Assembly (NCBI GenBank): GCA_051745305.1
Contig: JBNJDY010000001.1
Coordinates: 2,065 to 66,064 of the forward strand
Reading direction: 5' to 3'
Length of the DNA: 64,000 nucleotides
Origin: Thermoplasmatota archaeon
GTDB lineage: Archaea; Thermoplasmatota; Thermoplasmata; Halarchaeoplasmatales; Halarchaeoplasmataceae
The notes beneath the pieces are model-generated. The model was not told where the DNA came from. It saw only the letters and a list, made by a program, of their open reading frames with translations, and made no database searches. Positions 6,465-62,761 of this stretch are shown here, one piece after another. The first letter of the stretch is position 1; each line of letters begins with the position of its first letter. Both the position numbers and the translations under genes were made by a program.

Positions 6465-7271
6465 ATGTTCAATAAAATACTAATCGCCACAGACAACTCG
6501 CCTTTGATGAAAAAAGCTATGGAATATACTGCAACTATCTTTCCATATGCTGATTACCATCTTATCAATGTGATCAATACAAGTGATGGAAGTATTCCTC
6601 AAACAAGACTGATGCAGAAGAGATTAAGAGAGATATCTTCTGATGCGCTCAAATCAGGAAAAAAAGTTCTGAACAATATGGGTATTACAGGTATAAAAGT
6701 GGCTATGCCGGAAGGGACTCCTTCTAGACAGATAACAAACTACATCACAAAGAACGGTATCGATCTACTCGTGATGGCCACTCATTCTAAAATGGGGTCC
6801 CAGGAGGTACATATTGGGGAAACCGCTATACATTCTTTACAAATCACAAGTATACCATCGCTGATATTTTCCAGTAAATGCGAAGTTGAGATCCCTAAAA
6901 AGATATTTAATCCGACCACTTTCAGTAGTTATTCTGTTGACGCTACAATGGTTGCTCTTAGTTTAGCATCTCACTTCGAAGCAAGTTTAACAACATACCA
7001 TTTTGGCAGCAAAGATCCTGGACATGCTGCTAGGAGGATTCAACGAAGGGCTGAAAAAAATGATATTGATTTCGAGTTGATCATCGATAAAGAGGCGACC
7101 GATGAAAAATTACTCGAAGAATCAAAAAAATATGATTTTATAGTAGGGAGCAGGGGTAGAGGTGGCTTACTATATAAATTAAGATTCTTGTTCCCTAGAT
7201 TTGCACTGAGTAGTTTGGAGAAAGAATTGATCGCAGATTGTTCGATACCTTTACTCTTGGTCGGTGACTGA
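6465..7271 (+). CDS. Universal stress protein with tandem Usp domains
   Basis: The N-terminus ILIATDNS is the UspA signature. The 268 aa length fits two Usp domains, and the gene is a paralog of 10028..10837. Confidence 0.7.
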   Translation: MFNKILIATDNSPLMKKAMEYTATIFPYADYHLINVINTSDGSIPQTRLMQKRLREISSDALKSGKKVLNNMGITGIKVAMPEGTPSRQITNYITKNGIDLLVMATHSKMGSQEVHIGETAIHSLQITSIPSLIFSSKCEVEIPKKIFNPTTFSSYSVDATMVALSLASHFEASLTTYHFGSKDPGHAARRIQRRAEKNDIDFELIIDKEATDEKLLEESKKYDFIVGSRGRGGLLYKLRFLFPRFALSSLEKELIADCSIPLLLVGD

Positions 7272-8577
7272 GTTGAAAATAACCGTAATAGGATCACTAG
7301 TAATATTTGCACTGACTTATTACGGCATCATCAACAGACGAATACACAGAACCATAGCAGCCATGTCCGGCGGTATTTTTATGATACTGATCGGACATTG
7401 GATGGGATTCTACGATGCAAATCAAGCCATAGACTATATCGATTTCAATACCATCGGATTACTTTTTGGTATGATGATAATAGTTGGAATGCTGGGAGAT
7501 ACGGGATTCTTTAGATATTTAGCTATCAAAATCGCAAAGTTCTCAAACGGCAGTTATTACAAACTCTTGGCTTTACTAGTATTGGTGACTGCTTTTACTT
7601 CAGCTTTTCTAGATAATGTGACTACTATTCTTTTGATGGTGCCGATCACGATCACTATCGCGAGAGAATTAGATGTGACCCCTATTCCATTTTTGATGGC
7701 GGAATTGATCGCATCTAACATCGGTGGAACGATGACGTTGATAGGTGATCCTCCTAATATCATGATCGGAAGTGCTGCAAATATACATTTTATCCATTTC
7801 ATCATATATCTTGCACCAATTGTTATCATAGTTCTATTCATAGTACTACTAGTCTTTGAATTATCTAACTATGAATTGCTTAATCAAGAGATGACGAGGT
7901 TTGATGATATACTTAAACTAGATGCAAATGCCAGTATAGTCAATTATGATTTGCTGAAAAAAACAATTTTTATACTTACAATAACAATCTTATTATTTAC
8001 TGTTCACCATATTTTAAATTTGGAGCCTTGGTTTGTTGCAGTTTTGGGAGCTAGCCTTCTTTTACTTTTGACATTCACTGAGCCTGAAGAGGCATTGAAA
8101 CATGTCCATTGGGAAACTTTATTATTCTTCATGGGCTTGTTCATAGTCATAGGAGGTCTTCATAGTGCTGGTGTTATTGAGATCATCGCCTTGGAGATAG
8201 AGATATTCAGCGGTCACAGCTTGGTTTTATCCATGTTCATTATAATTATGATAAGTGGTCTTTTCGCCATTGTTATGGGAAATATACCAGCCGCTATTAT
8301 ATTGATTCCAGTTGTTAATATTTTCATCGATCATTCGGGATTGGGGGCAGGATTTATAATAAATCCTCTATGGTGGGCCCTATCATTGGGAACTTGTTTT
8401 GGTGGTAATGGTACTTTGATAAGTGCTCCAGCAAATCTCGTCGTTTCAAACATCTCTAATAAAATGGGGGAACCTATATCATTTTGGGGATATGCGAGAA
8501 AGGCACTTCCAATAACTATACTTTCTTTGTTCCTGTCGTTTATTTTCCTTTGGTTATTCTACATTGTTTTACTGTGA
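7264..8577 (+). CDS. Ion-transporter superfamily permease (ArsB/NhaD/DASS-like), paralog 1
   Basis: It is polytopic with the duplicated motifs IGGTMTLIGDPPN and GGNGTLISAPANL. It is closely similar to 8676..9980. Confidence 0.6.
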   Translation: MTELKITVIGSLVIFALTYYGIINRRIHRTIAAMSGGIFMILIGHWMGFYDANQAIDYIDFNTIGLLFGMMIIVGMLGDTGFFRYLAIKIAKFSNGSYYKLLALLVLVTAFTSAFLDNVTTILLMVPITITIARELDVTPIPFLMAELIASNIGGTMTLIGDPPNIMIGSAANIHFIHFIIYLAPIVIIVLFIVLLVFELSNYELLNQEMTRFDDILKLDANASIVNYDLLKKTIFILTITILLFTVHHILNLEPWFVAVLGASLLLLLTFTEPEEALKHVHWETLLFFMGLFIVIGGLHSAGVIEIIALEIEIFSGHSLVLSMFIIIMISGLFAIVMGNIPAAIILIPVVNIFIDHSGLGAGFIINPLWWALSLGTCFGGNGTLISAPANLVVSNISNKMGEPISFWGYARKALPITILSLFLSFIFLWLFYIVLL

Positions 8578-8675
8578 TTTTAAACCTATGAATATAAACT
8601 ATGAAAAACTGTAAATAGCTTAACATATCCTGGTTTTCAAAATGTGTATATAATAATTAAGAATAGGCGAAAGAT

Positions 8676-9980
8676 ATGACGGTAGAGGTTATCGGTTCAA
8701 TTATAATATTCGCATTATCTTACTATGGTATCGTTTCTAAGCGTATCCATAGAACGATAGCCGCCCTTTCAGGGGCCGTTGGTATGCTGCTTTTTGGACA
8801 CGGTTTGGGATTTTATGATACCCATGCAGCGATTGATTATATCGATTTCAATACTATCGGATTATTACTGGGTATGATGATTTTAGTGGGGCTACTAGGT
8901 GAAACCGGGTTTTTCAAATATGTTGCAATAAAAACAGCAAAAGCTTCCGAAGGTAGTTATTATAGATTACTCGCATTTTTTGTTCTAGTGACGGCTTTTA
9001 CATCTGCATTTCTTGACAATGTTACAACCATTTTACTTTTAGCTCCAGTTACTATCACTATAGCAAAAGAGATGGACATAAATCCTATACCTTTCCTAAT
9101 GACCGGTATTGTATCCGCAAACATAGGGGGTACCGCCACCCTGATAGGTGATCCTCCTAATGTGATAATCAGCAGTGCAACCGGAATCCAATTCAACGAA
9201 TTTATTTTATATTTGGCACCGATAGTGATCATCATCCTATTTGTGATACTGTTAGTCTTTGAATTTATTTACAAAGATATTGTCGAAACAGATATTGAAA
9301 ATTTCTCAAAGATAAAGAATATGGATGAAAAAAGTGCAATCACTAACAAATCCTTGTTAAATAAAGCATTGTTCGTCTTATTAATCACTACAATACTATT
9401 CTTATTTCATCATATAATCGGTATCGAGCCTTGGTTGGTGGCCATAACAGGTGCAAGTCTTCTTCTTATACTTTCACTTTCTGATCCGGAGGAAGCTCTA
9501 CAACACGTTCACTGGACCACATTGTTATTTTTTGCTTCTAAATTTATCCTAATCGGTGGATTGGATCAAGCGGGGATAATTCGAATGATAGGTTTTGGTA
9601 TGGTAAATGCAGCTGGTGAAAGTGTAGTTTTATCTATATTCATAGTACTTATGGTAGCTGGGGTATCGGCCATAATAATCGGGAACATACCTGCTGTAAT
9701 TGCACTTATACCTGCAGTTGAAATCTTTATAACACAGAGCCAGATGTTTGAAGGTTTTGCTGTTAATCCATTTTGGTGGGCTCTATCTCTTGGAGTGTGC
9801 CTGGGTGGTAATGGAACTCTAATCAGTTCTCATACTAATATGATCGTCTCAAGTATATCTGGTAAGATGGGATATCCTCTTTCATATTGGAAATACACAA
9901 AAACCGGCCTTCCAATAACAATTTTGTCTTTGTTTATAGCATTCTTTTTGATGGTTCTGTTTTTTGTAGTAATACTCTAA
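8676..9980 (+). CDS. Ion-transporter superfamily permease (ArsB/NhaD/DASS-like), paralog 2
   Basis: It carries the same motifs (IGGTATLIGDPPN, GGNGTLISSHTN) and is collinear with paralog 1 along its whole length. Confidence 0.6.
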   Translation: MTVEVIGSIIIFALSYYGIVSKRIHRTIAALSGAVGMLLFGHGLGFYDTHAAIDYIDFNTIGLLLGMMILVGLLGETGFFKYVAIKTAKASEGSYYRLLAFFVLVTAFTSAFLDNVTTILLLAPVTITIAKEMDINPIPFLMTGIVSANIGGTATLIGDPPNVIISSATGIQFNEFILYLAPIVIIILFVILLVFEFIYKDIVETDIENFSKIKNMDEKSAITNKSLLNKALFVLLITTILFLFHHIIGIEPWLVAITGASLLLILSLSDPEEALQHVHWTTLLFFASKFILIGGLDQAGIIRMIGFGMVNAAGESVVLSIFIVLMVAGVSAIIIGNIPAVIALIPAVEIFITQSQMFEGFAVNPFWWALSLGVCLGGNGTLISSHTNMIVSSISGKMGYPLSYWKYTKTGLPITILSLFIAFFLMVLFFVVIL

Positions 9981-10027
9981 ATAAAAGCAAAAAGTGTAAA
10001 TATATACATCAACTTATGATTATACAT

Positions 10028-10837
10028 ATGTTCAAGAATATACTCATAGCTACAGACGATTCCGAACTCATAAAAAATGCCATCAGATATACATCTAATG
10101 CTTTTCCGGATTCACAATACCATCTTTTAAATGTATTATACTCTACTGAATCAAGTGTTCCATCAACAGACATACTGATGAAAGACTTGAATCAAGCCTC
10201 TAAAAGAGCGATCCAAGACGGAGTTGAAATACTGCGAGATATGGGTATAGATAAAATCAAGAAAAGTGTTAGAGAAGGTGTTCCGAGTAAACAGATATTG
10301 AGATATGCGGAGGAAAATCATATAGATATGATCGTTATGGGAACCCAATCTAAATCTGGTATACAGACTTACGAGATAGGTAATACATGTATTCATACCT
10401 TAGAAAATACCACTATACCTGTGCTGCTTTTCGATACGATAGTCGATATAGTTGACCCCAAGAAGATTCTCCATCCAACAAGTGGAAGTAAATACTCTGT
10501 AGAAGCCGGTTATGTCGCAATAGAATTAGCTGAATACTTTAAAGGGAAAGTAAAAGTCCTATGTATCCGGGGAGATAAAGAAACTGAAGTTTCTTTCCGT
10601 AGATTGGAGACCTTTGCCGAGAAAAACAAAATATCTTTCAACATAAGTGCTTGTACTAAGAAACCAAACAAAGAAATTGTAAGAGAATCTAAAAAGAACG
10701 ATATAGTTGTCACTAGTCGTGGTAGACCTGGATTTAAGTACAAATTAAGAAAGATATATCCTCCATTCGCTCTTGGCACATTAGAAAGAGAGATTATTGT
10801 TGAGGCCAGGAAACCGGTACTCTTTGTAGGAGATTAA
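10028..10837 (+). CDS. Universal stress protein with tandem Usp domains
   Basis: MFKNILIATDDS parallels the start of 6465..7271. The listed ORF start at 9887 overlaps the permease by 94 bp and is probably too long. Confidence 0.7.
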   Translation: MFKNILIATDDSELIKNAIRYTSNAFPDSQYHLLNVLYSTESSVPSTDILMKDLNQASKRAIQDGVEILRDMGIDKIKKSVREGVPSKQILRYAEENHIDMIVMGTQSKSGIQTYEIGNTCIHTLENTTIPVLLFDTIVDIVDPKKILHPTSGSKYSVEAGYVAIELAEYFKGKVKVLCIRGDKETEVSFRRLETFAEKNKISFNISACTKKPNKEIVRESKKNDIVVTSRGRPGFKYKLRKIYPPFALGTLEREIIVEARKPVLFVGD

Positions 10838-10856
10838 TTCGGTTTATACATTCCGA

Positions 10857-26479: not shown

Positions 26480-27097
26480 ATGGAATCTATGGGGCAAAAA
26501 GTAGAAACTGTTAAAGAGATTGACCGAATCAAAATATCCTTGGAGGAGACCAGGGAGAAGATTCTAGCTTTGCTTAGAGTTAACAACATGTCGATCTCTC
26601 AGATCGCGGAAGTTTTGAATAAGGACCAATCTACAATAAACAGACACATAAAGAAACTGGAAAATGCTGGTTTTGTAGAAGTGGTCGGGGAGAGAAAAGA
26701 ACACCATATTCCAGAAAGGATATATGGAAGGGCTGCAGATACCTTTTTAATTAACCCTGATGTTCAAAGTACAAAGAAATTAGCTTCTCTAATGATCAAA
26801 TGGAACCTGGGTTACAATATAGATACCTTGGAAAAACTCGATATGGTAGGATACAGCGAGGGAATCTCTGAAAACACTCTGATAAACATTTATGATTTTA
26901 TAGAAAGTATGAACCAACATTTATCCACAAAAGTGGATGAATTAGAAAGAGAAGTAATGGATATGAACTATCGTGAATTGATCAAACTAAAACTTCTACT
27001 GTACCTTATTGAAATAAATAATGATAAAGATTTAGAAAATTATTTTTCTAAGGTTTTTTCAGATTTCAAAGGTATTATTAATTGGGAAGATGAGTAG
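26480..27097 (+). CDS. ArsR-like wHTH regulator with C-terminal domain of unknown function (paralog 1 of 3)
   Basis: It has the wHTH MSISQIAEVLNKDQSTINRHIKKLENAGFVE and no metal-binding ELCVCD-type motif. Confidence 0.6.
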   Translation: MESMGQKVETVKEIDRIKISLEETREKILALLRVNNMSISQIAEVLNKDQSTINRHIKKLENAGFVEVVGERKEHHIPERIYGRAADTFLINPDVQSTKKLASLMIKWNLGYNIDTLEKLDMVGYSEGISENTLINIYDFIESMNQHLSTKVDELEREVMDMNYRELIKLKLLLYLIEINNDKDLENYFSKVFSDFKGIINWEDE

Positions 27098-27144
27098 TAA
27101 TTCATCAGAAATTTTATTTACTTAACTTACTTATTTGATTTTAT

Positions 27145-27732
27145 ATGAAGGAAGATGTAGAACTTGTACATGACTCTGAGAGGATAAAGATTCTCCTCGA
27201 AGATACTAGAAAAAACATTTTGAATCTTCTAAAGGTAGAAGATATGTCGATCTCTCAGTTAGCTGAAGGATTGGACAAAGACCGTTCTACAATATATAGA
27301 CATGTTAAAAAATTAGAGGATTATGGGTATGTTGAGTTGAAAGGAGAAAGGATCGTGAATAATGTGCCAGGGATGGTTTACGGACGAACGGCTGTGTTAT
27401 TTTTACCTTGCCCAAAATCAATGGAACCTGGAGATCCTATACTTGAAAGTTTTTCGTGGGATGAAGAAAGTACATATAATATACTAGATTGTTTAAAATT
27501 ATTGGGTTATGATTTTGATTTAACTGAAGATTTAGCTAGGGATATCAGTAATATATTTACTAAAATTGATAACAATATAATCGATATCTTTAGAGAAACA
27601 GATTTAGTAGAAATGGATCACCTGGAAGCTTTAAGGCTTAAATTTTTAATTATTTTGATAGAATTCTCCAATAACGAAAAACTAAGAGATGATATCGAAA
27701 GCGTGATATCTGGTTTCGAAATACCTGAATAA
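27145..27732 (+). CDS. ArsR-like wHTH regulator (paralog 2 of 3)
   Basis: It has the wHTH MSISQLAEGLDKDRSTIYRHVKKLEDYGYVE and is collinear with its two neighbours. Confidence 0.6.
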   Translation: MKEDVELVHDSERIKILLEDTRKNILNLLKVEDMSISQLAEGLDKDRSTIYRHVKKLEDYGYVELKGERIVNNVPGMVYGRTAVLFLPCPKSMEPGDPILESFSWDEESTYNILDCLKLLGYDFDLTEDLARDISNIFTKIDNNIIDIFRETDLVEMDHLEALRLKFLIILIEFSNNEKLRDDIESVISGFEIPE

Positions 27733-27786
27733 TTTTATGATATACCAAAAACTTAATTATTATGTAAACTTCAATGGGAATTAGTC

Positions 27787-28374
27787 ATGAAAAAAGACGT
27801 TAAAGTTGTTCGAGACCCAAAAGCTATCAAGATAGCTGTGGAAGATACAAGAAGTAATATCCTTTCTTTATTGAGGATAAATGATATGTCGATTTCGCAG
27901 CTAGCTGAATCATTGGATAAGGATCAGTCTACGATATACAGGCATATCAAAAAATTAGAAGAGTATGGATACCTCGAACCATCCGGTGAAAAGAAAACAC
28001 ATCACATCCCTGAAAAAATATACGGGAGGACTGCAGGCGTGTTTTTACTATGTCCGAGTAACATAGATACCGGCCAGCCTTCAGATATGATGGTGGAATG
28101 GGAACGAAATAAAGCTGAAAGGATTTTAGAACTGCTAGATGTCATGGGTTACGAATCTGAAGACGGTGAAGAACTAGTCGACGATATCTCGGAGATATTT
28201 ATCGATTTGAAAGAACGTGTTACCAATCCAATCGAAAAATCTGAAGACGAGATCGGTAAGATCAGTTTTGCGACTCTCTTAAGACTTGAACTATTACTAT
28301 TCCTTTTGGAACAGCGGAATGATGAAGAACTAAAAAACAAAGTTGATTCCGTGCTCGATAAGTTTGTACAATAA
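27787..28374 (+). CDS. ArsR-like wHTH regulator (paralog 3 of 3)
   Basis: It has the wHTH MSISQLAESLDKDQSTIYRHIKKLEEYGYLE. Confidence 0.6.
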   Translation: MKKDVKVVRDPKAIKIAVEDTRSNILSLLRINDMSISQLAESLDKDQSTIYRHIKKLEEYGYLEPSGEKKTHHIPEKIYGRTAGVFLLCPSNIDTGQPSDMMVEWERNKAERILELLDVMGYESEDGEELVDDISEIFIDLKERVTNPIEKSEDEIGKISFATLLRLELLLFLLEQRNDEELKNKVDSVLDKFVQ

Positions 28375-45268: not shown

Positions 45269-46282
45269 TCAAATTATAGTTTTCATTTTCTTCTTGCTTC
45301 CCCTATTTAGCCCGGTAACGATAGACATTAATTTGATCTTGTTTTTACATTCCTCATCGATCCGAGCTCCAAATATTACCCCTGCTTTAGGGTCCAATTT
45401 AGATGTCATCATCCTGACAACGTCGTTCATTTTACTGATAGAAAGGTTTGGTCCGCCAGTAACGTGTATTAGAGCTTTTTTTGCTCCGGTATAATCCACG
45501 TTAAGGAATGGATTCTCACTAGCTTCCTGTACAGCTTTTTTAGGTTCATCATAAGTAGATTCTCCGATCATAAGTGTCGAAATCCCTCCATCACCGAGAA
45601 CCGATTTTAGATCATTATAATCGAGGTTGATCAAAGAAGGAAGCGTAATTATTTCTGTTACACTTTTTATCAACTCAGATATCAAAGAATCCATTATCCC
45701 AAAAGCTTGATCCATTGGTAAATCTGGTACTACTTCTAAGAGTTTATCGTTTTCTAAAAGGATCATAGAGTTCGAATATTCACGTAAACGTCTTACTCCT
45801 TGTTTAGCAGTTTCTCTTCTATTACCTTCAACTGAGAACGGCATAGTCGCTATACTTATTACCATGGCTTTTTCCCTTCTTGCGATCTCTGCGATAACCG
45901 GTGCTGCACCGGTACCTGTACCTCCGCCCATTCCTGCTGTGATAAAAACTAAATCACTACCTCCAATGATTTTTTTGAAGCCTCCGTAGGCAGCCTCTGC
46001 ACATCTCATTCCTACATTTGGGTCCCCACCTGTCCCAAGACCCCGATTATATTCTTTTCCAATGAGCATCTTTGTATCTGATTGTATATTGTTTAGGTGC
46101 TCTTTATCTGTGTTGACTGCTATAGTTCTAGCCCCATATACACCGATTCTACTTAGGCGGTTTATACTATTGTTTCCTCCTCCACCCACTCCTATAACTG
46201 ATACATTTAAACCTGAAGAATCTTCATTGTTTTCATAATTGCTATATTGATTCATGGCAATACCTTCTCTTTGATCACTCAA
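45269..46282 (-). CDS. ftsZ: Cell-division GTPase FtsZ
   Basis: It has the motifs GVGGGGNN, GMGGGTGTGAAPVIAEIA and NTD, and a canonical T7 region. Confidence 0.85.
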   Translation of the reverse strand: MSDQREGIAMNQYSNYENNEDSSGLNVSVIGVGGGGNNSINRLSRIGVYGARTIAVNTDKEHLNNIQSDTKMLIGKEYNRGLGTGGDPNVGMRCAEAAYGGFKKIIGGSDLVFITAGMGGGTGTGAAPVIAEIARREKAMVISIATMPFSVEGNRRETAKQGVRRLREYSNSMILLENDKLLEVVPDLPMDQAFGIMDSLISELIKSVTEIITLPSLINLDYNDLKSVLGDGGISTLMIGESTYDEPKKAVQEASENPFLNVDYTGAKKALIHVTGGPNLSISKMNDVVRMMTSKLDPKAGVIFGARIDEECKNKIKLMSIVTGLNRGSKKKMKTII

Positions 46283-46319: not shown

Positions 46320-46637
46320 TTAGTCTTCCAATCTCTTTTTGTATTGATCTATCTTTTCTTTTACATAATCTCGAACAGCGTTCCTGATAGCATCGTCTAC
46401 AGATATAGAATCTCCTTCTTGAACTAGATTCTTTATCTCATTAACCTTCTTTTTTGGAAGATCGACCGTCACTTTAGATATGTGATCGGGTGCATTTTTA
46501 TTTTCGATAAAGTCAGCGATAGCGGTTCTAATAGCTGCTGACATGGTTGAATATTCTCCTTTTTCAACTAGGGTCTGTAGATCATCAGCCATTTCGTTTG
46601 GAATTCTGACAGTTATTCTTTGTGTGTCCGACGCCAT
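46320..46637 (-). CDS. Tandem ribbon-helix-helix (CopG-like) DNA-binding protein
   Basis: It has two RHH units (ITVRIPNEMADDL... and VTVDLPKKKVNEI...). It lies immediately upstream of ftsZ on the same strand. Confidence 0.5.
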   Translation of the reverse strand: MASDTQRITVRIPNEMADDLQTLVEKGEYSTMSAAIRTAIADFIENKNAPDHISKVTVDLPKKKVNEIKNLVQEGDSISVDDAIRNAVRDYVKEKIDQYKKRLED

Positions 46638-49717: not shown

Positions 49718-49720
49718 ATC

Positions 49721-49963
49721 CTACTTCCTTTTGATCTTCTTCTTTTTGGATTTTTCTTTCTTGCGGTACGTTTTTACAACTTTTTCTTGGGCGTGTTTCT
49801 TAGTCCATTTCGTTTCTCTTTCCTTTCTCCCAAGTTTCAGCATATTCTGTTCACATTTGTGATTACAAAAATTGTAGGTTTGTCCATCTGTTTTGATATA
49901 CAATTTTCCTGTTCCGGGTTCTATTTTATTCCCACAGAAAGTACATTCCTTAGCTTCAACCAT
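49721..49963 (-). CDS. rpl24e: Ribosomal protein L24e
   Basis: It has the CTFCGNKIEPGTGKLYIKTDGQTYNFCNHKC zinc motif. Confidence 0.85.
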   Translation of the reverse strand: MVEAKECTFCGNKIEPGTGKLYIKTDGQTYNFCNHKCEQNMLKLGRKERETKWTKKHAQEKVVKTYRKKEKSKKKKIKRK

Positions 49964-49964
49964 G

Positions 49965-50177
49965 CTATCTAACTCCTATACTTTTCGCTTCCCTAGCAGT
50001 CTCTCTAAGCATCAGCTTGTCGCCTTTCTGAACAGGTCCCATTACATTCCGAGTGATTATTCTACCCTCGTCTCTTCCTTCAAGGACTCTGACTTTAACC
50101 TGGGTAGCCTCTCCGGTCATCCCGGTCCTACCTACTATTTCGACAACTTCACCCGGCGTACCTTCATATTCTGCCAT
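49965..50177 (-). CDS. rps28e: Ribosomal protein S28e
   Basis: It has the [40 protein letters not shown] motif. Confidence 0.9.
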
Positions 50178-50204
50178 TTGAAACTCCTCTTTATATTATT
50201 TTTA

Positions 50205-50570
50205 TTATTTCAATTCTTCAATCGAATTTTTAATGTTTTCTATCATCTGTTCCGCCTTTCCTGGATCCGTTATAGCCACGGATGCGGAATAAGAATCTAT
50301 ACCAGAAGCAGCTCCGAGTTCTTGTTTACTTGGGACGTAAGCATAAGGAACACCTCTTTCTTCACACAATAAAGGCATGTGTGCTAAAATCTCCGGCGGG
50401 TTAACATCTTCTGCCATGACTACAAATTTAGCGTCACCACGTTCAACAACCTTGGTTACCTCGTTAGTTCCCTTTCTAACCTCTCCAGTATCCCTTGCTA
50501 TCTCTACTGCTTCATAACTTTTATCGATCAACTCTTCAGACATTTCGAAATTTACATACATTTTTGCCAT
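50205..50570 (-). CDS. rpl7ae: Ribosomal protein L7Ae (K-turn binding)
   Basis: It has the [29 protein letters not shown]...[12 protein letters not shown] motif. The listed ORF start at 50603 is probably 11 codons too long. Confidence 0.85.
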
Positions 50571-50730
50571 TATTAACACCTCTTTCGGACGTATCGTCCT
50601 CACAAATCATCGGTATATTACCAATGGAGTAAGCCCTTTACAGAAGGTATAATATAAAAACCTTTTTCCACTCCTTATGGACTTGCTTGTTAATCCGTAA
50701 AGATTAAAGTAATTAAAACTATCTGAAACC

Positions 50731-59778: not shown

Positions 59779-60069
59779 ATGTATGCAGTATTTGAAGTTG
59801 ACTCCGATAAATTCGAGTTGATCCAGGATGTATTATCCGATGAGTTAGTTAGCCGCCAGACTACCAGTATAAGAGATGGTAAAAGTTTGGGTATGAAAGA
59901 AGACGTCAATTATTTCCTGGTTGAAGGTAGCGAAGAAGCAATTGAAAGAGCAGTTGAATTATTCAGTGAAGAAGGTATAGAAAAAGCTGAAAACGCTGAA
60001 GAAGTAAAAAAAGCTATCGAAAAAGAAGATGAAGCTGCTGCCCAAGGTATGGGAACGGTCTTCGGTTAA
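59779..60069 (+). CDS. Small acidic hypothetical protein
   Basis: This 96 aa E/D-rich protein is followed by a T-rich terminator. Confidence 0.35.
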   Translation: MYAVFEVDSDKFELIQDVLSDELVSRQTTSIRDGKSLGMKEDVNYFLVEGSEEAIERAVELFSEEGIEKAENAEEVKKAIEKEDEAAAQGMGTVFG

Positions 60070-60173: not shown

Positions 60174-61208
60174 GTGATAAACATGAAAGCGATGAACAAA
60201 AAATTAGGAGTGATATTGAGCGTAATACTGATAGCTTTAATCCCAGTATCACTAGCGACTACATCGATTGCCGAAGAAAGCGGACCGATAGATGGATTTG
60301 ACCCGCCAGTAGATGGTGGGGAAATGTTTAGGAACAGAACTGAAAACGCCGCTTCACACGGTGCAGCAACATTTTTGAAAGTTGAAGACTATGAACCTTG
60401 GGCGGCTTTAGTTATAAACGCCGGAGATCCAAGAGGTGTTGATGAGGTTACTGCAAGTTTTGAAAACGACACACTGAGGATAGAAGCCCAAGATAGCAAC
60501 TCTACAAATCACGTTACTATACTGATAAACAAAGAATTCGCTGACGAATATCTAGCTGATGCTGAAAGTGATTTAGAAATAGAAACAAGCGATGCTGTGA
60601 ACTACGACGGTTTAGAGAATTCCAACTCAAGTGCCGGCGAAGGAGCTGTTTACGTCTTCCATATCGAGCATTTCAGTACGCAATGGTTCGAGATAACGAG
60701 TTCAATCGTTGACATCGATCCACCCGTTGAGGGGGGAGAAACTTTCAGGAACACAGCTCAAAACGCTGCCTCTAATGGTGCAGCTTCATTCCTTTGGGTA
60801 GAGGATTATAAACCATGGGCCGCTTTAGTCATTAATGCTGGAGATCAGAGAGGTGTCGATGCGGTTACTGCAAGTTTTGAAAACGACACACTGAGGATAG
60901 AAGCCCAAGATAGCAACTCTACAAATCACGTTACTATACTGATAAACAAAGAATTCGCTGACGAATATCTAGCTGATGCTGAAAGTGATTTAGAAATAGA
61001 AACAAGCGATGCTGTGAACTACGACGGTTTAGAGAATTCCAACTCAAGTGCCGGTGGAGGAGCTGTTTACGTCTTCCATATCGAGCATTTCAGTACACAA
61101 TGGTTCGAGATATCCGCTGAGGAATCCATACCATTCATAGGTATTCCACTGATGTTGATGGCAGGAGCTATTCCAGTAGTGTACTATTACTTCAAGAAAA
61201 AAGAATAA
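60174..61208 (+). CDS. Secreted/cell-surface protein with two tandem 139-aa repeats and a C-terminal TM anchor
   Basis: It has a signal-peptide-like N-terminus, many NxS/T sequons, the duplicated module DPPV(D/E)GGE.FRN...STQWFEI, and the C-terminal anchor IPLMLMAGAIPVVYYYFKKKE. Confidence 0.65.
   Translation: MINMKAMNKKLGVILSVILIALIPVSLATTSIAEESGPIDGFDPPVDGGEMFRNRTENAASHGAATFLKVEDYEPWAALVINAGDPRGVDEVTASFENDTLRIEAQDSNSTNHVTILINKEFADEYLADAESDLEIETSDAVNYDGLENSNSSAGEGAVYVFHIEHFSTQWFEITSSIVDIDPPVEGGETFRNTAQNAASNGAASFLWVEDYKPWAALVINAGDQRGVDAVTASFENDTLRIEAQDSNSTNHVTILINKEFADEYLADAESDLEIETSDAVNYDGLENSNSSAGGGAVYVFHIEHFSTQWFEISAEESIPFIGIPLMLMAGAIPVVYYYFKKKE
60290..61123 (+). repeat. Two in-frame tandem direct repeats of 417 bp, with about 248 bp nearly identical between the copies
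   Basis: Segment 60447..60694 recurs at 60864..61111 with only about 3 mismatches. The first halves of the two units are more diverged. Confidence 0.8.
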
Positions 61209-61240: not shown

Positions 61241-62158
61241 CTATATTCCTGCTAATAATGTAACACGTGTTCTTTCACCCAAGTCAGGATCTTTTTTCAA
61301 TCCCCACATTATATTTGCATTTGGTGATCTTCGTCGGATCACTTCTAAAGCATCTTCTGCTTCTAATTCAGCAGAACCCTGACCGCTTGTAACCACGGTT
61401 AAAATAGTCTCGTATTTTTCTGGATTATCTAGCCACGGCGATCTGTAAGCTTCTTTGGATGCCCTTTTACCTCTTTTCCTACCTTTCCCGTAACCAGCAC
61501 CTATTCTAAATTCGTCCACACCTTTACAGAAGTCCCGAAGTGAAGAAATATCTCCTCTAGTCATAACCGCGTTGAAATCAGTAATAGGGAGCATAATAAT
61601 AGAATTCATAACATCGAAAGCTTTTGTCATAGGGAGATGAGGGCTCATTTTTAGTAATCTACTGTTCTCAAAAACACCTAAGACGTCACAGTTATTACTT
61701 ATTTTTTCCTTTGATTCTTTAGCTAGACGGTATCTAGAACCACCTTCATTTCTAAATGGCATTGCCACAAATACCATTGTGAAACCTTGTTTTGAAGCTT
61801 TTTTTGAAAATATAGGAGTGGTCCAACTTCCCGTTTGCCCTCCTAGACCAGATAATATGTAAAAGAGATCACCAGATTCTGTAGAACGATCTATTTTATC
61901 TTCAGAGAGGTTAGAATAAGAGTTTCTAAAATTTGCCATCGAATCGTAAGAGTTTCTAATCTCATGTTTATCGATATTAATAAAGGAACAGTTACTGAAT
62001 CGCCTTTTTTCACCAACTTCACAAAACGACATATTCGTTACCGATTGATCATCCATCAGAGAGGATAATATATTCCTTCCTGCACCACCTATGCCAAATA
62101 CTTTTGTTTCTGGTCTATCTCTATTTATTTCTGCTCCGAATCTCAAGGTTTTTCCCAT
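61241..62158 (-). CDS. Divergent FtsZ/tubulin-superfamily protein with a non-canonical GTP-binding signature
   Basis: It is FtsZ-like over its full length (FGIGGAGRNILS, a PF.NEG T5-like region, C-terminal domain). The glycine signature is GLGGQTGSW instead of GGGTGTG. Confidence 0.6.
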   Translation of the reverse strand: MGKTLRFGAEINRDRPETKVFGIGGAGRNILSSLMDDQSVTNMSFCEVGEKRRFSNCSFINIDKHEIRNSYDSMANFRNSYSNLSEDKIDRSTESGDLFYILSGLGGQTGSWTTPIFSKKASKQGFTMVFVAMPFRNEGGSRYRLAKESKEKISNNCDVLGVFENSRLLKMSPHLPMTKAFDVMNSIIMLPITDFNAVMTRGDISSLRDFCKGVDEFRIGAGYGKGRKRGKRASKEAYRSPWLDNPEKYETILTVVTSGQGSAELEAEDALEVIRRRSPNANIMWGLKKDPDLGERTRVTLLAGI

Positions 62159-62195
62159 CTTATACGTTCCTCATAATAATTGATAAGATAAAAAA

Positions 62196-62627
62196 CTATT
62201 TGTTATCTGAGAACAAAGATCTTTTATTCTTAAAAAAATCCGATTCTGCACCACCATCTAAAAAGATCCTTCTTCTAGATGAATACCATCCTGTTAATCC
62301 TCCGATGATCGGAGATACATACGACGCAAATACAGCCTCATGTGTACCGAATAATACAAAGGCTAAATAAACCCCTATAAATAAGTTGATAATTATTGGT
62401 ACTATCCAACCTAAGCTAAAACCGAAGTAAACACCAAAAAAGATCCCTGTAAAACTACCGATAAGTAGAGCGATACCTAAAAATGATATGTAATTTGAAC
62501 CTAAAATAATCCCTACTATAAGTGTGACTATTCCTACAACGAATAAAAATGAAAGCTGCTTCCAAATTTCTGTATATTTTTGAAAGACATCATTTATCCT
62601 TTCGATTTTAGATTTTTCGTCCATCAC
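62196..62627 (-). CDS. Small membrane protein (4 TM)
   Basis: It is hydrophobic and co-oriented 37 bp upstream of the FtsZ-like gene. Confidence 0.4.
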   Translation of the reverse strand: MMDEKSKIERINDVFQKYTEIWKQLSFLFVVGIVTLIVGIILGSNYISFLGIALLIGSFTGIFFGVYFGFSLGWIVPIIINLFIGVYLAFVLFGTHEAVFASYVSPIIGGLTGWYSSRRRIFLDGGAESDFFKNKRSLFSDNK

Positions 62628-62761
62628 AGATCACATCACTCATAGATTTATTGGATTTTAGATAATAAGGTATCTATAATTCTTTTGGTTGTTTTAGGAA
62701 TTTTAAACTGATGAAAAGTTAAAAATACAACTTAATACAATATATTAACGGGTGTATAAAG

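Follow-up and report, generated by a model that had tools for sequence, protein, structure and literature searches.

Known systems related to the FtsZ-like locus

FtsZ filaments owe their dynamics to GTP hydrolysis, a reaction set off by the T7 ('synergy') loop of the adjacent subunit, and the C-terminal tail of FtsZ normally recruits membrane anchors. FtsZ mutants altered at the bottom face cap filaments at sub-stoichiometric levels. In the alpha/beta-tubulin dimer, beta-tubulin has a T7 without the catalytic acidic residue, so that at one interface the bound nucleotide always stays unhydrolysed. Haloferax volcanii FtsZ1 and FtsZ2 with the T7 Asp changed to Ala do not complement deletion strains, and the equivalent bacterial T7 mutants form hyper-stable filaments (bioRxiv 10.1101/2020.06.04.133736). 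The FtsZ of the thaumarchaeon Nitrosopumilus, Nmar_1262, has a degenerate signature (AGKAGSA) and no recognisable T7, and produced no polymers in a heterologous host (PMC3684127). Two families of FtsZ-like proteins have also been described. FtsZl1 is devoid of T6-H7 and of a C-terminal FtsZ domain, contains a coiled coil and is encoded in vWA operons (PMC2875224), and FtsZl2, a proteobacterial family, has retained an intact T7 and has ~300 additional aa at its C-terminal end (Makarova and Koonin 2010, PMC2875224).

A divergent FtsZ paralog alongside a canonical FtsZ2

The window, i.e. the whole 64,000-nucleotide stretch of DNA analysed, encodes two FtsZ homologues. One (45269..46282, minus strand) is a canonical FtsZ of the FtsZ2 family (TIGR00065, 357 bits), which provides context and lies outside the module described below. 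It joins FtsZ2 in an NJ tree with 82% bootstrap and is 49% identical to the FtsZ of Halosegnis, at whose locus CdrL and the RHH gene CdrS are found; an RHH gene (46320..46637) also lies upstream of ftsZ2 in the window. The other homologue (61241..62158, minus strand) is an FtsZ-like gene with a verified open reading frame and a 305-aa product, recognized through Pfam, AF2 and Foldseek as a T7-truncated, tail-less FtsZ paralog. The protein matches Pfam Tubulin (PF00091, 8.5e-19) and FtsZ_C (PF12327, 3.7e-8), scores 118 bits on the TIGR00065 ftsZ equivalog (curated cut-off 295 bits) and is 26% identical to the canonical FtsZ of the window. These values bear out the sequence-only reading, which had proposed a divergent paralog beside a canonical FtsZ and retention of the overall fold: structure prediction with AF2 gave a confident two-domain FtsZ fold (pLDDT 90.8, pTM 0.90), for which the top Foldseek match is Staphylococcus aureus FtsZ (TM 0.82). 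[quoted passage not shown]

Altered and retained loops

T7 is reduced to the remnant MTRGDISS (residues 199-206; 61541..61564, minus strand), in which five residues are deleted and the first Asp (D203) is the only one kept; canonical NxDxxD is absent, with neither its Asn nor its second, catalytic Asp remaining. Three alignments agree on this, as a HMMER profile comparison with Methanocaldococcus jannaschii FtsZ1 and two MAFFT alignments all place an H7-H8 region 5-6 residues shorter. Pairwise BLAST puts the gap elsewhere, yet loses the same two T7 residues, and in the AF2 model H7 (177-198) and H8 (201-210) are just two residues apart. The region had been called atypical, and the alteration is stronger than claimed. 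Among homologues sharing this deletion (the T7-deleted family), the position of the second Asp is variable and some members have an acidic residue there.

The T4 tubulin signature is likewise altered, reading GLGGQTGSW (residues 104-112; 61823..61849, minus strand) in alignments and translation in place of canonical GGGTG(T/S)G. Across the T7-deleted family the pattern is GLGG[E/Q/D/R..]xGS[W/..], most members carrying E/Q/D/R instead of the third Gly and most core members W instead of the last; the change in the glycine loop is genuine and conserved across the family rather than an alignment artefact. Comparison with M. jannaschii FtsZ1 (HMMER), column comparison and AF2 indicate that T2 and T3 are also replaced (residues 46-83; 61910..62023, minus strand), with NTD of T2 becoming EVG and T3 having no conserved glycine and forming, in the model, a helix (64-75). 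Also absent are the C-terminal linker and tail, the protein stopping directly after its last strand (...RVTLLAGI), whereas FtsZ1 matches end in LGIEF/GIDF.

A comparison of the nucleotide pocket separates what is kept from what is lost. The parts that contact the phosphates, ribose and base are retained, namely T1, the GG..G core of T4, T5, T6 and the H7 Phe; the T1 phosphate loop GIGGAGRN (residues 22-29; 62072..62095, minus strand) is invariant across the T7-deleted family, and the residues invariant within this family are those of the pocket. Lost are the gamma-phosphate-sensing T2 and T3, together with the T7 Asn and second Asp that activate hydrolysis in the neighbouring subunit.

The distribution of these changes over the two faces of the subunit bears on an improbable alternative, in which the protein naturally caps the ends of FtsZ2 filaments or inhibits them, its top face docking while its bottom face blocks growth. 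Damage is heavier on the bottom face, where T7 is deleted and a hydrophobic residue (presumably aligned with Escherichia coli L272) is replaced by a near-invariant Lys, and the LP(M/L) motif preceding H7 on the top face is retained. However, the top-face T3 and T2 loops are replaced as well, which argues against a canonical heterologous interface.

Distribution of the T7-deleted family

The features of the FtsZ-like protein recur in 52 homologous protein clusters and 38 GTDB species-representative genomes, and so are not due to chance. In these same 52 clusters and 38 species the open reading frame is intact and of constant length, and the gene is under purifying selection (dN/dS 0.065-0.079). 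The loss of catalytic motifs could suggest a duplicated ftsZ that has lost its function and is decaying, but this is scarcely credible given the dN/dS of ~0.07, the intact frames, the invariance of the pocket residues and the confidently predicted fold.

The T7 deletion is common to all core and wide members, and occurs in no canonical FtsZ1, FtsZ2 or bacterial sequence in the alignments. Core loci come from the halophilic order Halarchaeoplasmatales, Thermoplasmatota archaea of salt lakes; the wider family comprises tail-less, T7-deleted proteins of ~300 aa in Methanomassiliicoccales and other Thermoplasmata. Family members are defined by the five-residue T7 deletion, a length of ~300 aa, an end after S10 and GLGGxxG(S/T), all of which are found in the FtsZ-like protein. 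In public annotation, part of the family is labelled 'cell division protein FtsZ' and part 'hypothetical protein'. No account of such a T7-deleted family in Thermoplasmatota turned up in the literature searches. The T7-deleted, tail-less proteins apparently constitute an undescribed, Thermoplasmatota-restricted FtsZ subfamily.

Phylogenetic placement

In the NJ tree, a distance tree in which long-branch effects are likely, the T7-deleted family falls outside the clusters formed by FtsZ1, by FtsZ2 and by the bacterial sequences, and bootstrap support for the all-inclusive family is 29%. Profile scores rank FtsZ1 first: the family means are 134 bits against FtsZ1, 120 against bacterial FtsZ and 100 against FtsZ2, and the least derived member (P0070) scores 294, 198 and 257 bits against the FtsZ1, FtsZ2 and bacterial profiles respectively. 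The best sequence match in the PDB is M. jannaschii FtsZ1 (146 bits). Slower evolution of FtsZ1 may in part explain its leading scores. From these sequence comparisons, the most likely ancestor of the family is an archaeal gene of the FtsZ1 type.

A phylogenetic placement squarely within FtsZ2 or CetZ would have refuted the sequence-only reading; tree and scores place the protein outside both. Membership of FtsZ2 was rejected on the lowest of the profile scores and the lack of an RHH neighbour, both FtsZ2 features being present in the other FtsZ of the window. CetZ was rejected because the CetZ structure 3zid matched at 22.9 bits, against 146 for FtsZ, and FtsZ_C was matched. For FtsZl1, there was no match to Tubulin_2 (PF13809) at E<=0.1, and T6, H7 and FtsZ_C are present; for FtsZl1 and FtsZl2 alike, no coiled-coil, vWA, kinase or OmpA neighbours accompany the gene, which has only small TM and 96-aa proteins beside it. 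The suggested resemblance to published FtsZ-like membrane-remodelling families was not supported. A membrane-protein neighbour and a non-canonical signature would suit a member of FtsZl1/FtsZl2 or CetZ, but such membership is very improbable in view of the absence of Tubulin_2, the presence of FtsZ_C, T6 and H7, and the score of ~23 versus 146 bits.

An alternative that carries more weight, although it too is unlikely, is that the FtsZ-like protein is the fast-evolving FtsZ1 orthologue of its lineage, acting, by analogy with beta-tubulin and its T7, as the non-catalytic partner of FtsZ2 in the division ring, with no separate canonical FtsZ1. The best scores are those of FtsZ1 profiles, and the survey of Pende 2021 (Supplementary Data 1) lists two FtsZ homologues for most Thermoplasmata genomes. 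The ftsZ2 gene lies 9-15 kb downstream of the FtsZ-like gene, in the same orientation, both in the window and at one further locus (L031). FtsZ HMM scans of the retrieved flanks of FtsZ-like loci found FtsZ2 alone, and a canonical FtsZ1 of Halarchaeoplasmatales was not found among the best 120 protein matches or in those flanks; one candidate was rejected as belonging to an unrelated assembly. Against this, canonical FtsZ1 is encoded in the cluster ftsZ1-secE-nusG-L11 (rpl11), as seen in Thermococcus and three Thermoplasmatota contigs, whereas none of the T7-deleted genes among >50 loci sits in it, and orthology by synteny was rejected on this ground. Canonical FtsZ1 is, moreover, 75-98% conserved within Thermoplasmatota groups, and for Methanomassiliicoccaceae, carriers of the wider family, 3-6 FtsZ homologues are listed, as fits an extra paralog.

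A candidate membrane-protein partner in Halarchaeoplasmatales

Upstream of the FtsZ-like gene lies the gene of a small glycine-zipper membrane protein (62196..62627, minus strand), the upstream partner, with 143 aa from GTG 62627 or 142 aa from the alternative, probable start ATG 62624. Verification of the coordinates confirmed that this 4-TM protein is encoded 37 bp upstream on the same strand. A single-sequence AF2 model (pLDDT 73) predicts four hydrophobic helices together with N- and C-terminal helices (3-41, 44-67, 74-91, 97-122 and 126-140) and basic ends. The protein has a conserved GxxxG glycine zipper and is under purifying selection (dN/dS 0.14-0.19); searches of Pfam and NCBIfam found no family for it, for the 96-aa protein described below or for an alternative 54-aa ORF.

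The proposal of a two-gene module survives in part. The partner adjoins the FtsZ-like gene in 33 of the 38 core species-level loci (Halarchaeoplasmatales; median spacer 37 bp), and when metagenomes were searched from the partner side, by subgroup alignment since the full partner alignment was too divergent, all 12 homologues found were followed by the FtsZ-like gene, so that the neighbour is conserved in related genomes. The partner is missing, however, from the other 5 core loci and from all 15 wider-family loci, from which it follows that the FtsZ-like protein can work without it. In the 37-bp spacer (62159..62195, minus strand), TTTTTTATC directly follows the partner stop, and GAGGA stands 9 nt ahead of the FtsZ-like ATG. 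The stretch TTTTTTATC may function as a TATA-like and/or oligo-T element, and ~20 of 33 related spacers contain a TTTT(T)AT element. Given this conserved element, co-transcription is not established, and the two genes may be transcribed separately. Within the divergent intergenic region shared with a PAC2 gene (62628..62761, minus strand), the stretch TTATTATCTAAAAT, A/T-rich and TATA-like, is a putative promoter of the partner, whose start lies 30-45 nt downstream of it.

Throughout much of the clade, the FtsZ-like gene converges with the gene of a 96-aa acidic protein (59779..60069, plus strand), which shows 59-77% identity in distant loci. Its gene lies downstream in 34/38 core, 11/12 metagenome and none of the wide-family loci; in the window, a gene inserted at 60174..61208 parts it from the FtsZ-like gene. 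[quoted passage not shown]

Proposed function

The interpretation considered probable on balance is that of a functional, hydrolysis-incompetent FtsZ paralog of the T7-deleted Thermoplasmatota family, derived from FtsZ1 and, in Halarchaeoplasmatales, tethered or regulated by the membrane partner. Such a protein would still bind nucleotide through the kept pocket and would not drive the GTP-hydrolysis cycle behind dynamic FtsZ filaments. With this nucleotide-driven cycle lost, it would form a static oligomer or filament, or serve other FtsZ subunits as a non-catalytic partner or cap. Counting against this interpretation is the failure of Nmar_1262, which has similar losses, to polymerise (PMC3684127). 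Because the anchor-recruiting tail is lost, the partner, with both ends predicted to be cytoplasmic, could tether or regulate the protein in Halarchaeoplasmatales. The process it serves might be an accessory one in division, or concern the envelope or cell shape.

A bolder proposal, which for now seems doubtful, is that the FtsZ-like protein, the partner and possibly the 96-aa protein form an unknown membrane-attached FtsZ structure of halophilic Thermoplasmatota, either a non-dynamic cytoskeletal scaffold or, for the FtsZ2 ring, a built-in non-catalytic partner or cap. If true, prokaryotes would have a counterpart to the way in which catalytic and non-catalytic roles are divided between alpha- and beta-tubulin. 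That dozens of species hold under strong selection an FtsZ with T7 deleted and the tail dropped raises the question of what purpose a non-hydrolysing FtsZ serves. The protein offers archaeal cell biology a natural 'T7-dead' FtsZ with a candidate dedicated membrane partner, and the T7-deleted family is an unrecognised clade for the FtsZ/tubulin tree of Thermoplasmatota, which FtsZ paralog counts in genome surveys could include.

Comparison with known systems

The FtsZ-like protein resembles FtsZl1 and FtsZl2 in being a divergent member of the FtsZ superfamily that co-exists with a conventional FtsZ, often near membrane-protein genes, but none of the described hallmarks of those families applies to it. 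With archaeal FtsZ1 (M. jannaschii FtsZ1, PDB 1FSZ/1W58) it shares the two-domain fold, T1, T5, T6, the H7 Phe and the first T7 Asp; the T7-deleted family differs in its T7 deletion, replaced T2 and T3 and changed T4, and has neither the C-terminal GI(D/E)F tail nor the ftsZ1-secE-nusG-L11 locus. Going by its published description, Nmar_1262 is likewise an archaeal FtsZ homologue with a degenerate signature and a lost T7, but it belongs to another phylum, while the T7-deleted family keeps GG..GS and T1 and has a membrane partner in one order. A shortened T7 is shared with the engineered S. aureus FtsZ T7-loop replacement mutants 3WGK and 3WGL (Foldseek ranks 7 and 34), though these were made in the laboratory and their other loops and their interfaces are canonical. 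Beta-tubulin, finally, is also a paralog whose T7 misses the catalytic residue, but it belongs to the tubulin family rather than FtsZ.

An FtsZ paralog with an intact fold

The gene at 61241..62158 (-) encodes a 305-aa FtsZ-like protein and lies 37 bp from a partner gene on the same strand (62196..62627 (-); 143 aa when started at a GTG, the next codon, at 62624, being an ATG). The protein matches the Pfam families Tubulin (8.5e-19) and FtsZ_C (3.7e-8), and scores 118 bits against the NCBIfam ftsZ equivalog (cut-off 295 bits), compared with 357 for the canonical FtsZ at 45269..46282 (-), to which it is 26% identical. An AlphaFold2 model based on 52 homologues is confident (pLDDT 90.8, pTM 0.90) and can be superposed on solved structures of FtsZ (TM-scores ~0.8); its top structural matches include engineered Staphylococcus aureus FtsZ mutants whose T7 loop is shortened. 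Close orthologues show a dN/dS of 0.065-0.079. A sequence-only reading had proposed a divergent FtsZ paralog beside the canonical one and suggested a structure prediction; the gene is indeed a real, selected and structurally intact FtsZ paralog.

Motifs kept and lost

The family was compared with 47 canonical sequences (FtsZ1, FtsZ2 and bacterial) at the columns where these are conserved to 80% or more, using Methanocaldococcus jannaschii numbering from a HMMER alignment. The family retains the T1 loop GxGGAGxN (invariant), G130, G132, G133 and G136 of T4, the T5 motif PF..E..R, the T6 Asn, A207 and F208 of helix H7, and the first T7 Asp (D235 in M. jannaschii, D203 in the FtsZ-like protein); its invariant residues are those of the pocket. 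Elsewhere, the T2 triad N70/T71/D72 is changed to EVG in the FtsZ-like protein, and all conserved glycines of T3 are gone, with a helix (64-75) predicted in their place. The altered signature GLGGQTGSW noticed earlier is borne out by this comparison, reflecting substitution of G134 by Q (in other members E, D, R and further residues) and of G138 by W. The base-contacting D212 is replaced by Asn, invariant in the core family of halophilic Halarchaeoplasmatales.

The T7 region, also flagged as atypical, carries a five-residue deletion (GLINV) that removes N233, and the catalytic D238 is lost, its position being variable in the family. HMMER, MAFFT, the model and BLAST agree on the loss: only two residues separate H7 (177-198) from H8 (201-210) in the model, and in a pairwise BLAST the gap lies a few residues closer to the N-terminus, with the same Asn and Asp lost. 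The position that we take, by our own mapping, to align with the bottom-face L272 of Escherichia coli is a near-invariant Lys. The protein stops right after the last beta-strand, with neither linker nor tail; canonical archaeal FtsZ1 ends in an LGIEF/GIDF motif, the SepF-binding region (Pende et al., PMC8178401). In sum, the FtsZ-like protein has lost the catalytic T7 loop, the loops that sense the gamma-phosphate and the tail used for anchoring.

A Thermoplasmatota-wide family

A word-indexed search recovered 52 clusters (305-320 aa, 37-100% identical), all from Thermoplasmatota MAGs, with named members annotated 'hypothetical protein'. Scanning GTDB species representatives yielded 38 core-family loci in Ca. 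Saliniplasma, Haladaptatiplasma, Halarchaeoplasma, Natronoplasma and soda- or salt-lake Thermoplasmata, of the order Ca. Halarchaeoplasmatales/Haloplasmatales (PMC11332174). One of these relatives' loci, L017 (JBKHKA010000001.1), has clashing labels: 'Candidatus Aenigmatarchaeota archaeon' in the genome record and 'Candidatus Natronoplasma sp.' in the protein record.

When 1.84 billion representatives were searched exhaustively with a profile, the scores fell into three tiers: the core family (387-495 bits), a wider set of ~30 representatives (285-330 aa, 140-231 bits; named members from Thermoplasmata and Methanomassiliicoccales MAGs) and canonical FtsZ (136-160 bits). Since the last overlaps the low end of the wider set, membership is defined by the T7 deletion and not by score. 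In a 102-sequence MAFFT alignment, the five-residue deletion is present in all core and wider members and in no canonical FtsZ1, FtsZ2 or bacterial sequence. The Thermoplasmata protein P0070 shares it although its signature is still GLGGGTGSG, which makes the deletion, rather than the glycine-loop change, the defining character. The family is Thermoplasmatota-wide. Most Thermoplasmata are listed with two FtsZ homologues and Methanomassiliicoccaceae with three to six (Pende et al.), the latter count fitting an extra paralog. In two other proteins from the search, P0054 (840 aa) and P0061 (826 aa), two complete FtsZ domains of the canonical kind follow one another, both bearing GMGGGTG(S/T)G.

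Relationship to FtsZ1, FtsZ2 and CetZ

The canonical FtsZ of the window belongs to the FtsZ2 family. It joins the FtsZ2 cluster with 82% bootstrap support in a neighbour-joining tree, shares 49% identity with a Halosegnis FtsZ encoded at a locus with CdrL and the ribbon-helix-helix (RHH) CdrS gene, and has an RHH gene directly upstream, a published hallmark of ftsZ2 (PMC8178401, PMC9871819). This upstream gene (46320..46637 (-), 105 aa) has two apparent tandem RHH units (RITVRIP...; KVTVDLP...), whereas its Halosegnis equivalent is a single 58-aa CdrS. FtsZ2 proteins of the clade have unusually short C-terminal tails. The window's FtsZ2 and FtsZ-like protein are neutral to basic (pI 7.7-7.8 and 9.3), compared with a median of 5.1 for the window's proteins and about 5.0 for canonical FtsZ1; across the clade, FtsZ2 has a median of 8.8 and the T7-deleted family one of 7.6, with wide spread.

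In the same tree (100 bootstraps, long-branch effects likely), the core clade is monophyletic (100%) and the T7-deleted family lies apart from the clusters of FtsZ1, FtsZ2 and bacterial FtsZ, with only 29% support when all its members are included. Placement within FtsZ2 or CetZ, which the sequence-only reading had named as evidence against itself, was not found, CetZ membership being rejected on a score of 23 bits for 3zid versus 146 for M. jannaschii FtsZ1. The profile scores speak for an origin from FtsZ1: family means are 134 bits for FtsZ1, 100 for FtsZ2 and 120 for bacterial FtsZ, and the least derived member, P0070, scores 294/198/257 bits. The nearest canonical relatives of P0070 are FtsZ1-type proteins of ~350-390 aa (named ones 349-386 aa) from Thermoplasmatota, Thermococcus and DPANN archaea. 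The main rival explanation takes the gene to be the order's FtsZ1 in derived form, which would act together with FtsZ2 in the ring. Canonical ftsZ1 lies in an ftsZ1-secE-nusG-L11 cluster (Thermococcus and three Thermoplasmatota contigs), which surrounds none of the T7-deleted genes at the loci examined.

A lineage-specific candidate membrane partner

At 33 of 38 core loci, a hydrophobic protein of 121-170 aa is encoded directly upstream on the same strand (spacer -8 to 71 bp, median 37), with a glycine zipper (GxxxGxxxG, GWPxG, GP..G...G.W) and no matching Pfam or NCBIfam family. Its identity among relatives is 17-33% (46-78% to the three closest) versus 37-56% for the FtsZ-like protein; it diverges much faster, yet is under purifying selection (dN/dS 0.14-0.19). 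A single-sequence AlphaFold2 model (pLDDT 73) predicts four hydrophobic helices between N- and C-terminal helices which, with the basic ends, suggests that both termini are cytoplasmic. A metagenome scan with a subgroup alignment of the partner detected 12 homologues on soda-lake contigs, in all 12 cases with the FtsZ-like gene directly downstream. The proposed two-gene membrane module stands as tight linkage within one order and is not universal, the partner being absent from five core loci and all 15 wider-family loci. The latter show another synteny, with diphthine synthase and Trm5 at 13/15 and also dCTP deaminase at 10/15.

The five partner-less core loci (L014, L015, L016, L018 and L020, one subclade including Ca. 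Haladaptatiplasma) instead carry a conserved 54-63-aa acidic ORF (...EYLRMFFIFDTVLE...ELFE.IQQ.SLQ) after a Pus10-L21e-RpoF-DUF655 cluster, matching no known family. In many spacers TTTT(T)ATC stands right after the partner stop, ~30 nt ahead of the FtsZ-like ATG, where it may serve as the TATA box of a leaderless transcript, as an oligo-T terminator or in both roles, so that the two genes may be transcribed together or separately. The window's spacer has GAGGA 9 nt before the ATG.

Neighbouring genes and other features

A 96-aa acidic protein (59779..60069 (+); 59-77% identical among relatives) is encoded convergently with the FtsZ-like gene at 34/38 core and 11/12 metagenome loci, including the core loci without the partner, and at no wider-family locus. 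It was also seen at loci L001, L003, L005, L012-L059 and L068-L079. Its C-terminus (...EDEAAAQGMGTVFG) resembles archaeal ribosomal stalk protein tails (Thermococcus L12P end ...EEALAGLGALFG); the N-terminal part is without a family match, the sole hint being a weak NCBIfam match to the L10 C-terminal end (E 0.06). In the window, the two genes are separated by another (60174..61208 (+)), encoding a 344-aa protein predicted to be secreted with a C-terminal membrane anchor; within the gene, 300 nt are duplicated in tandem (87% identity, spacing 417 nt). A ~1.1-kb gap occurs at the same place in L012, L013, L016, L019, L022, L040 and L047, and is absent in most other relatives. On the Natronoplasma contig of L005/L006, a phage-type integrase, terminase large subunit and small ORFs lie beside the conserved neighbourhood, about 4-9 kb upstream of the FtsZ-like gene, and are probably an integrated provirus.

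Elsewhere in the window, 26480..28374 (+) encodes three similar tandem helix-turn-helix paralogs (205/195/195 aa; ..RIKILLEDTR.NIL.LL.V.DMSISQLAE.L.KD.STIYRH.KKLE.Y), and 7264..9980 (+) two tandem paralogous membrane proteins (437 and 434 aa) with near-identical N-termini. Two stretches of ~0.9-1.0 kb (9981..10856 and 49718..50730) have no convincing ORF or Rfam match; a C0719 sRNA match at 10379..10563 is sub-threshold (19.8 bits, gathering score 50).

Proposed function and comparison with known systems

Because the pocket residues are invariant, the FtsZ-like protein may still bind nucleotide, though it would be unable to stimulate hydrolysis in the neighbouring subunit. T7 Asp-to-Ala mutants of Haloferax volcanii FtsZ1 and FtsZ2 do not complement, and bacterial equivalents form hyper-stable filaments (bioRxiv 10.1101/2020.06.04.133736). 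With both longitudinal faces altered, a static assembly that associates with itself, or a non-catalytic partner with a specialised role, would be favoured over a conventional dynamic filament, and the upstream membrane protein would be the best candidate tether. A thaumarchaeal FtsZ with comparable losses did not polymerise (PMC3684127), so by analogy a non-filament role is possible.

The suggested kinship with published FtsZ-like membrane-remodelling families was not supported: FtsZl1 has a coiled coil, a vWA operon and Tubulin_2, the T7-deleted family lacks all three, and its T6, H7 and FtsZ C-domain are present, so FtsZl1/FtsZl2 membership was rejected. The searchable literature yielded no description of a T7-deleted FtsZ family: surveys mention divergent FtsZs of Crenarchaeota and of CPR bacteria (PMC9871819), and tubulin-superfamily proteins of non-canonical type from Thaumarchaeota, Asgard and DPANN archaea (PMC9856176), but not this one. 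The most apt classification is that of a new FtsZ subfamily whose membrane partner is specific to one lineage. Divergent FtsZ paralogs have precedents; even so, an FtsZ that naturally lacks T7, is widespread and selected, and has a candidate for a dedicated partner lends itself to direct testing.
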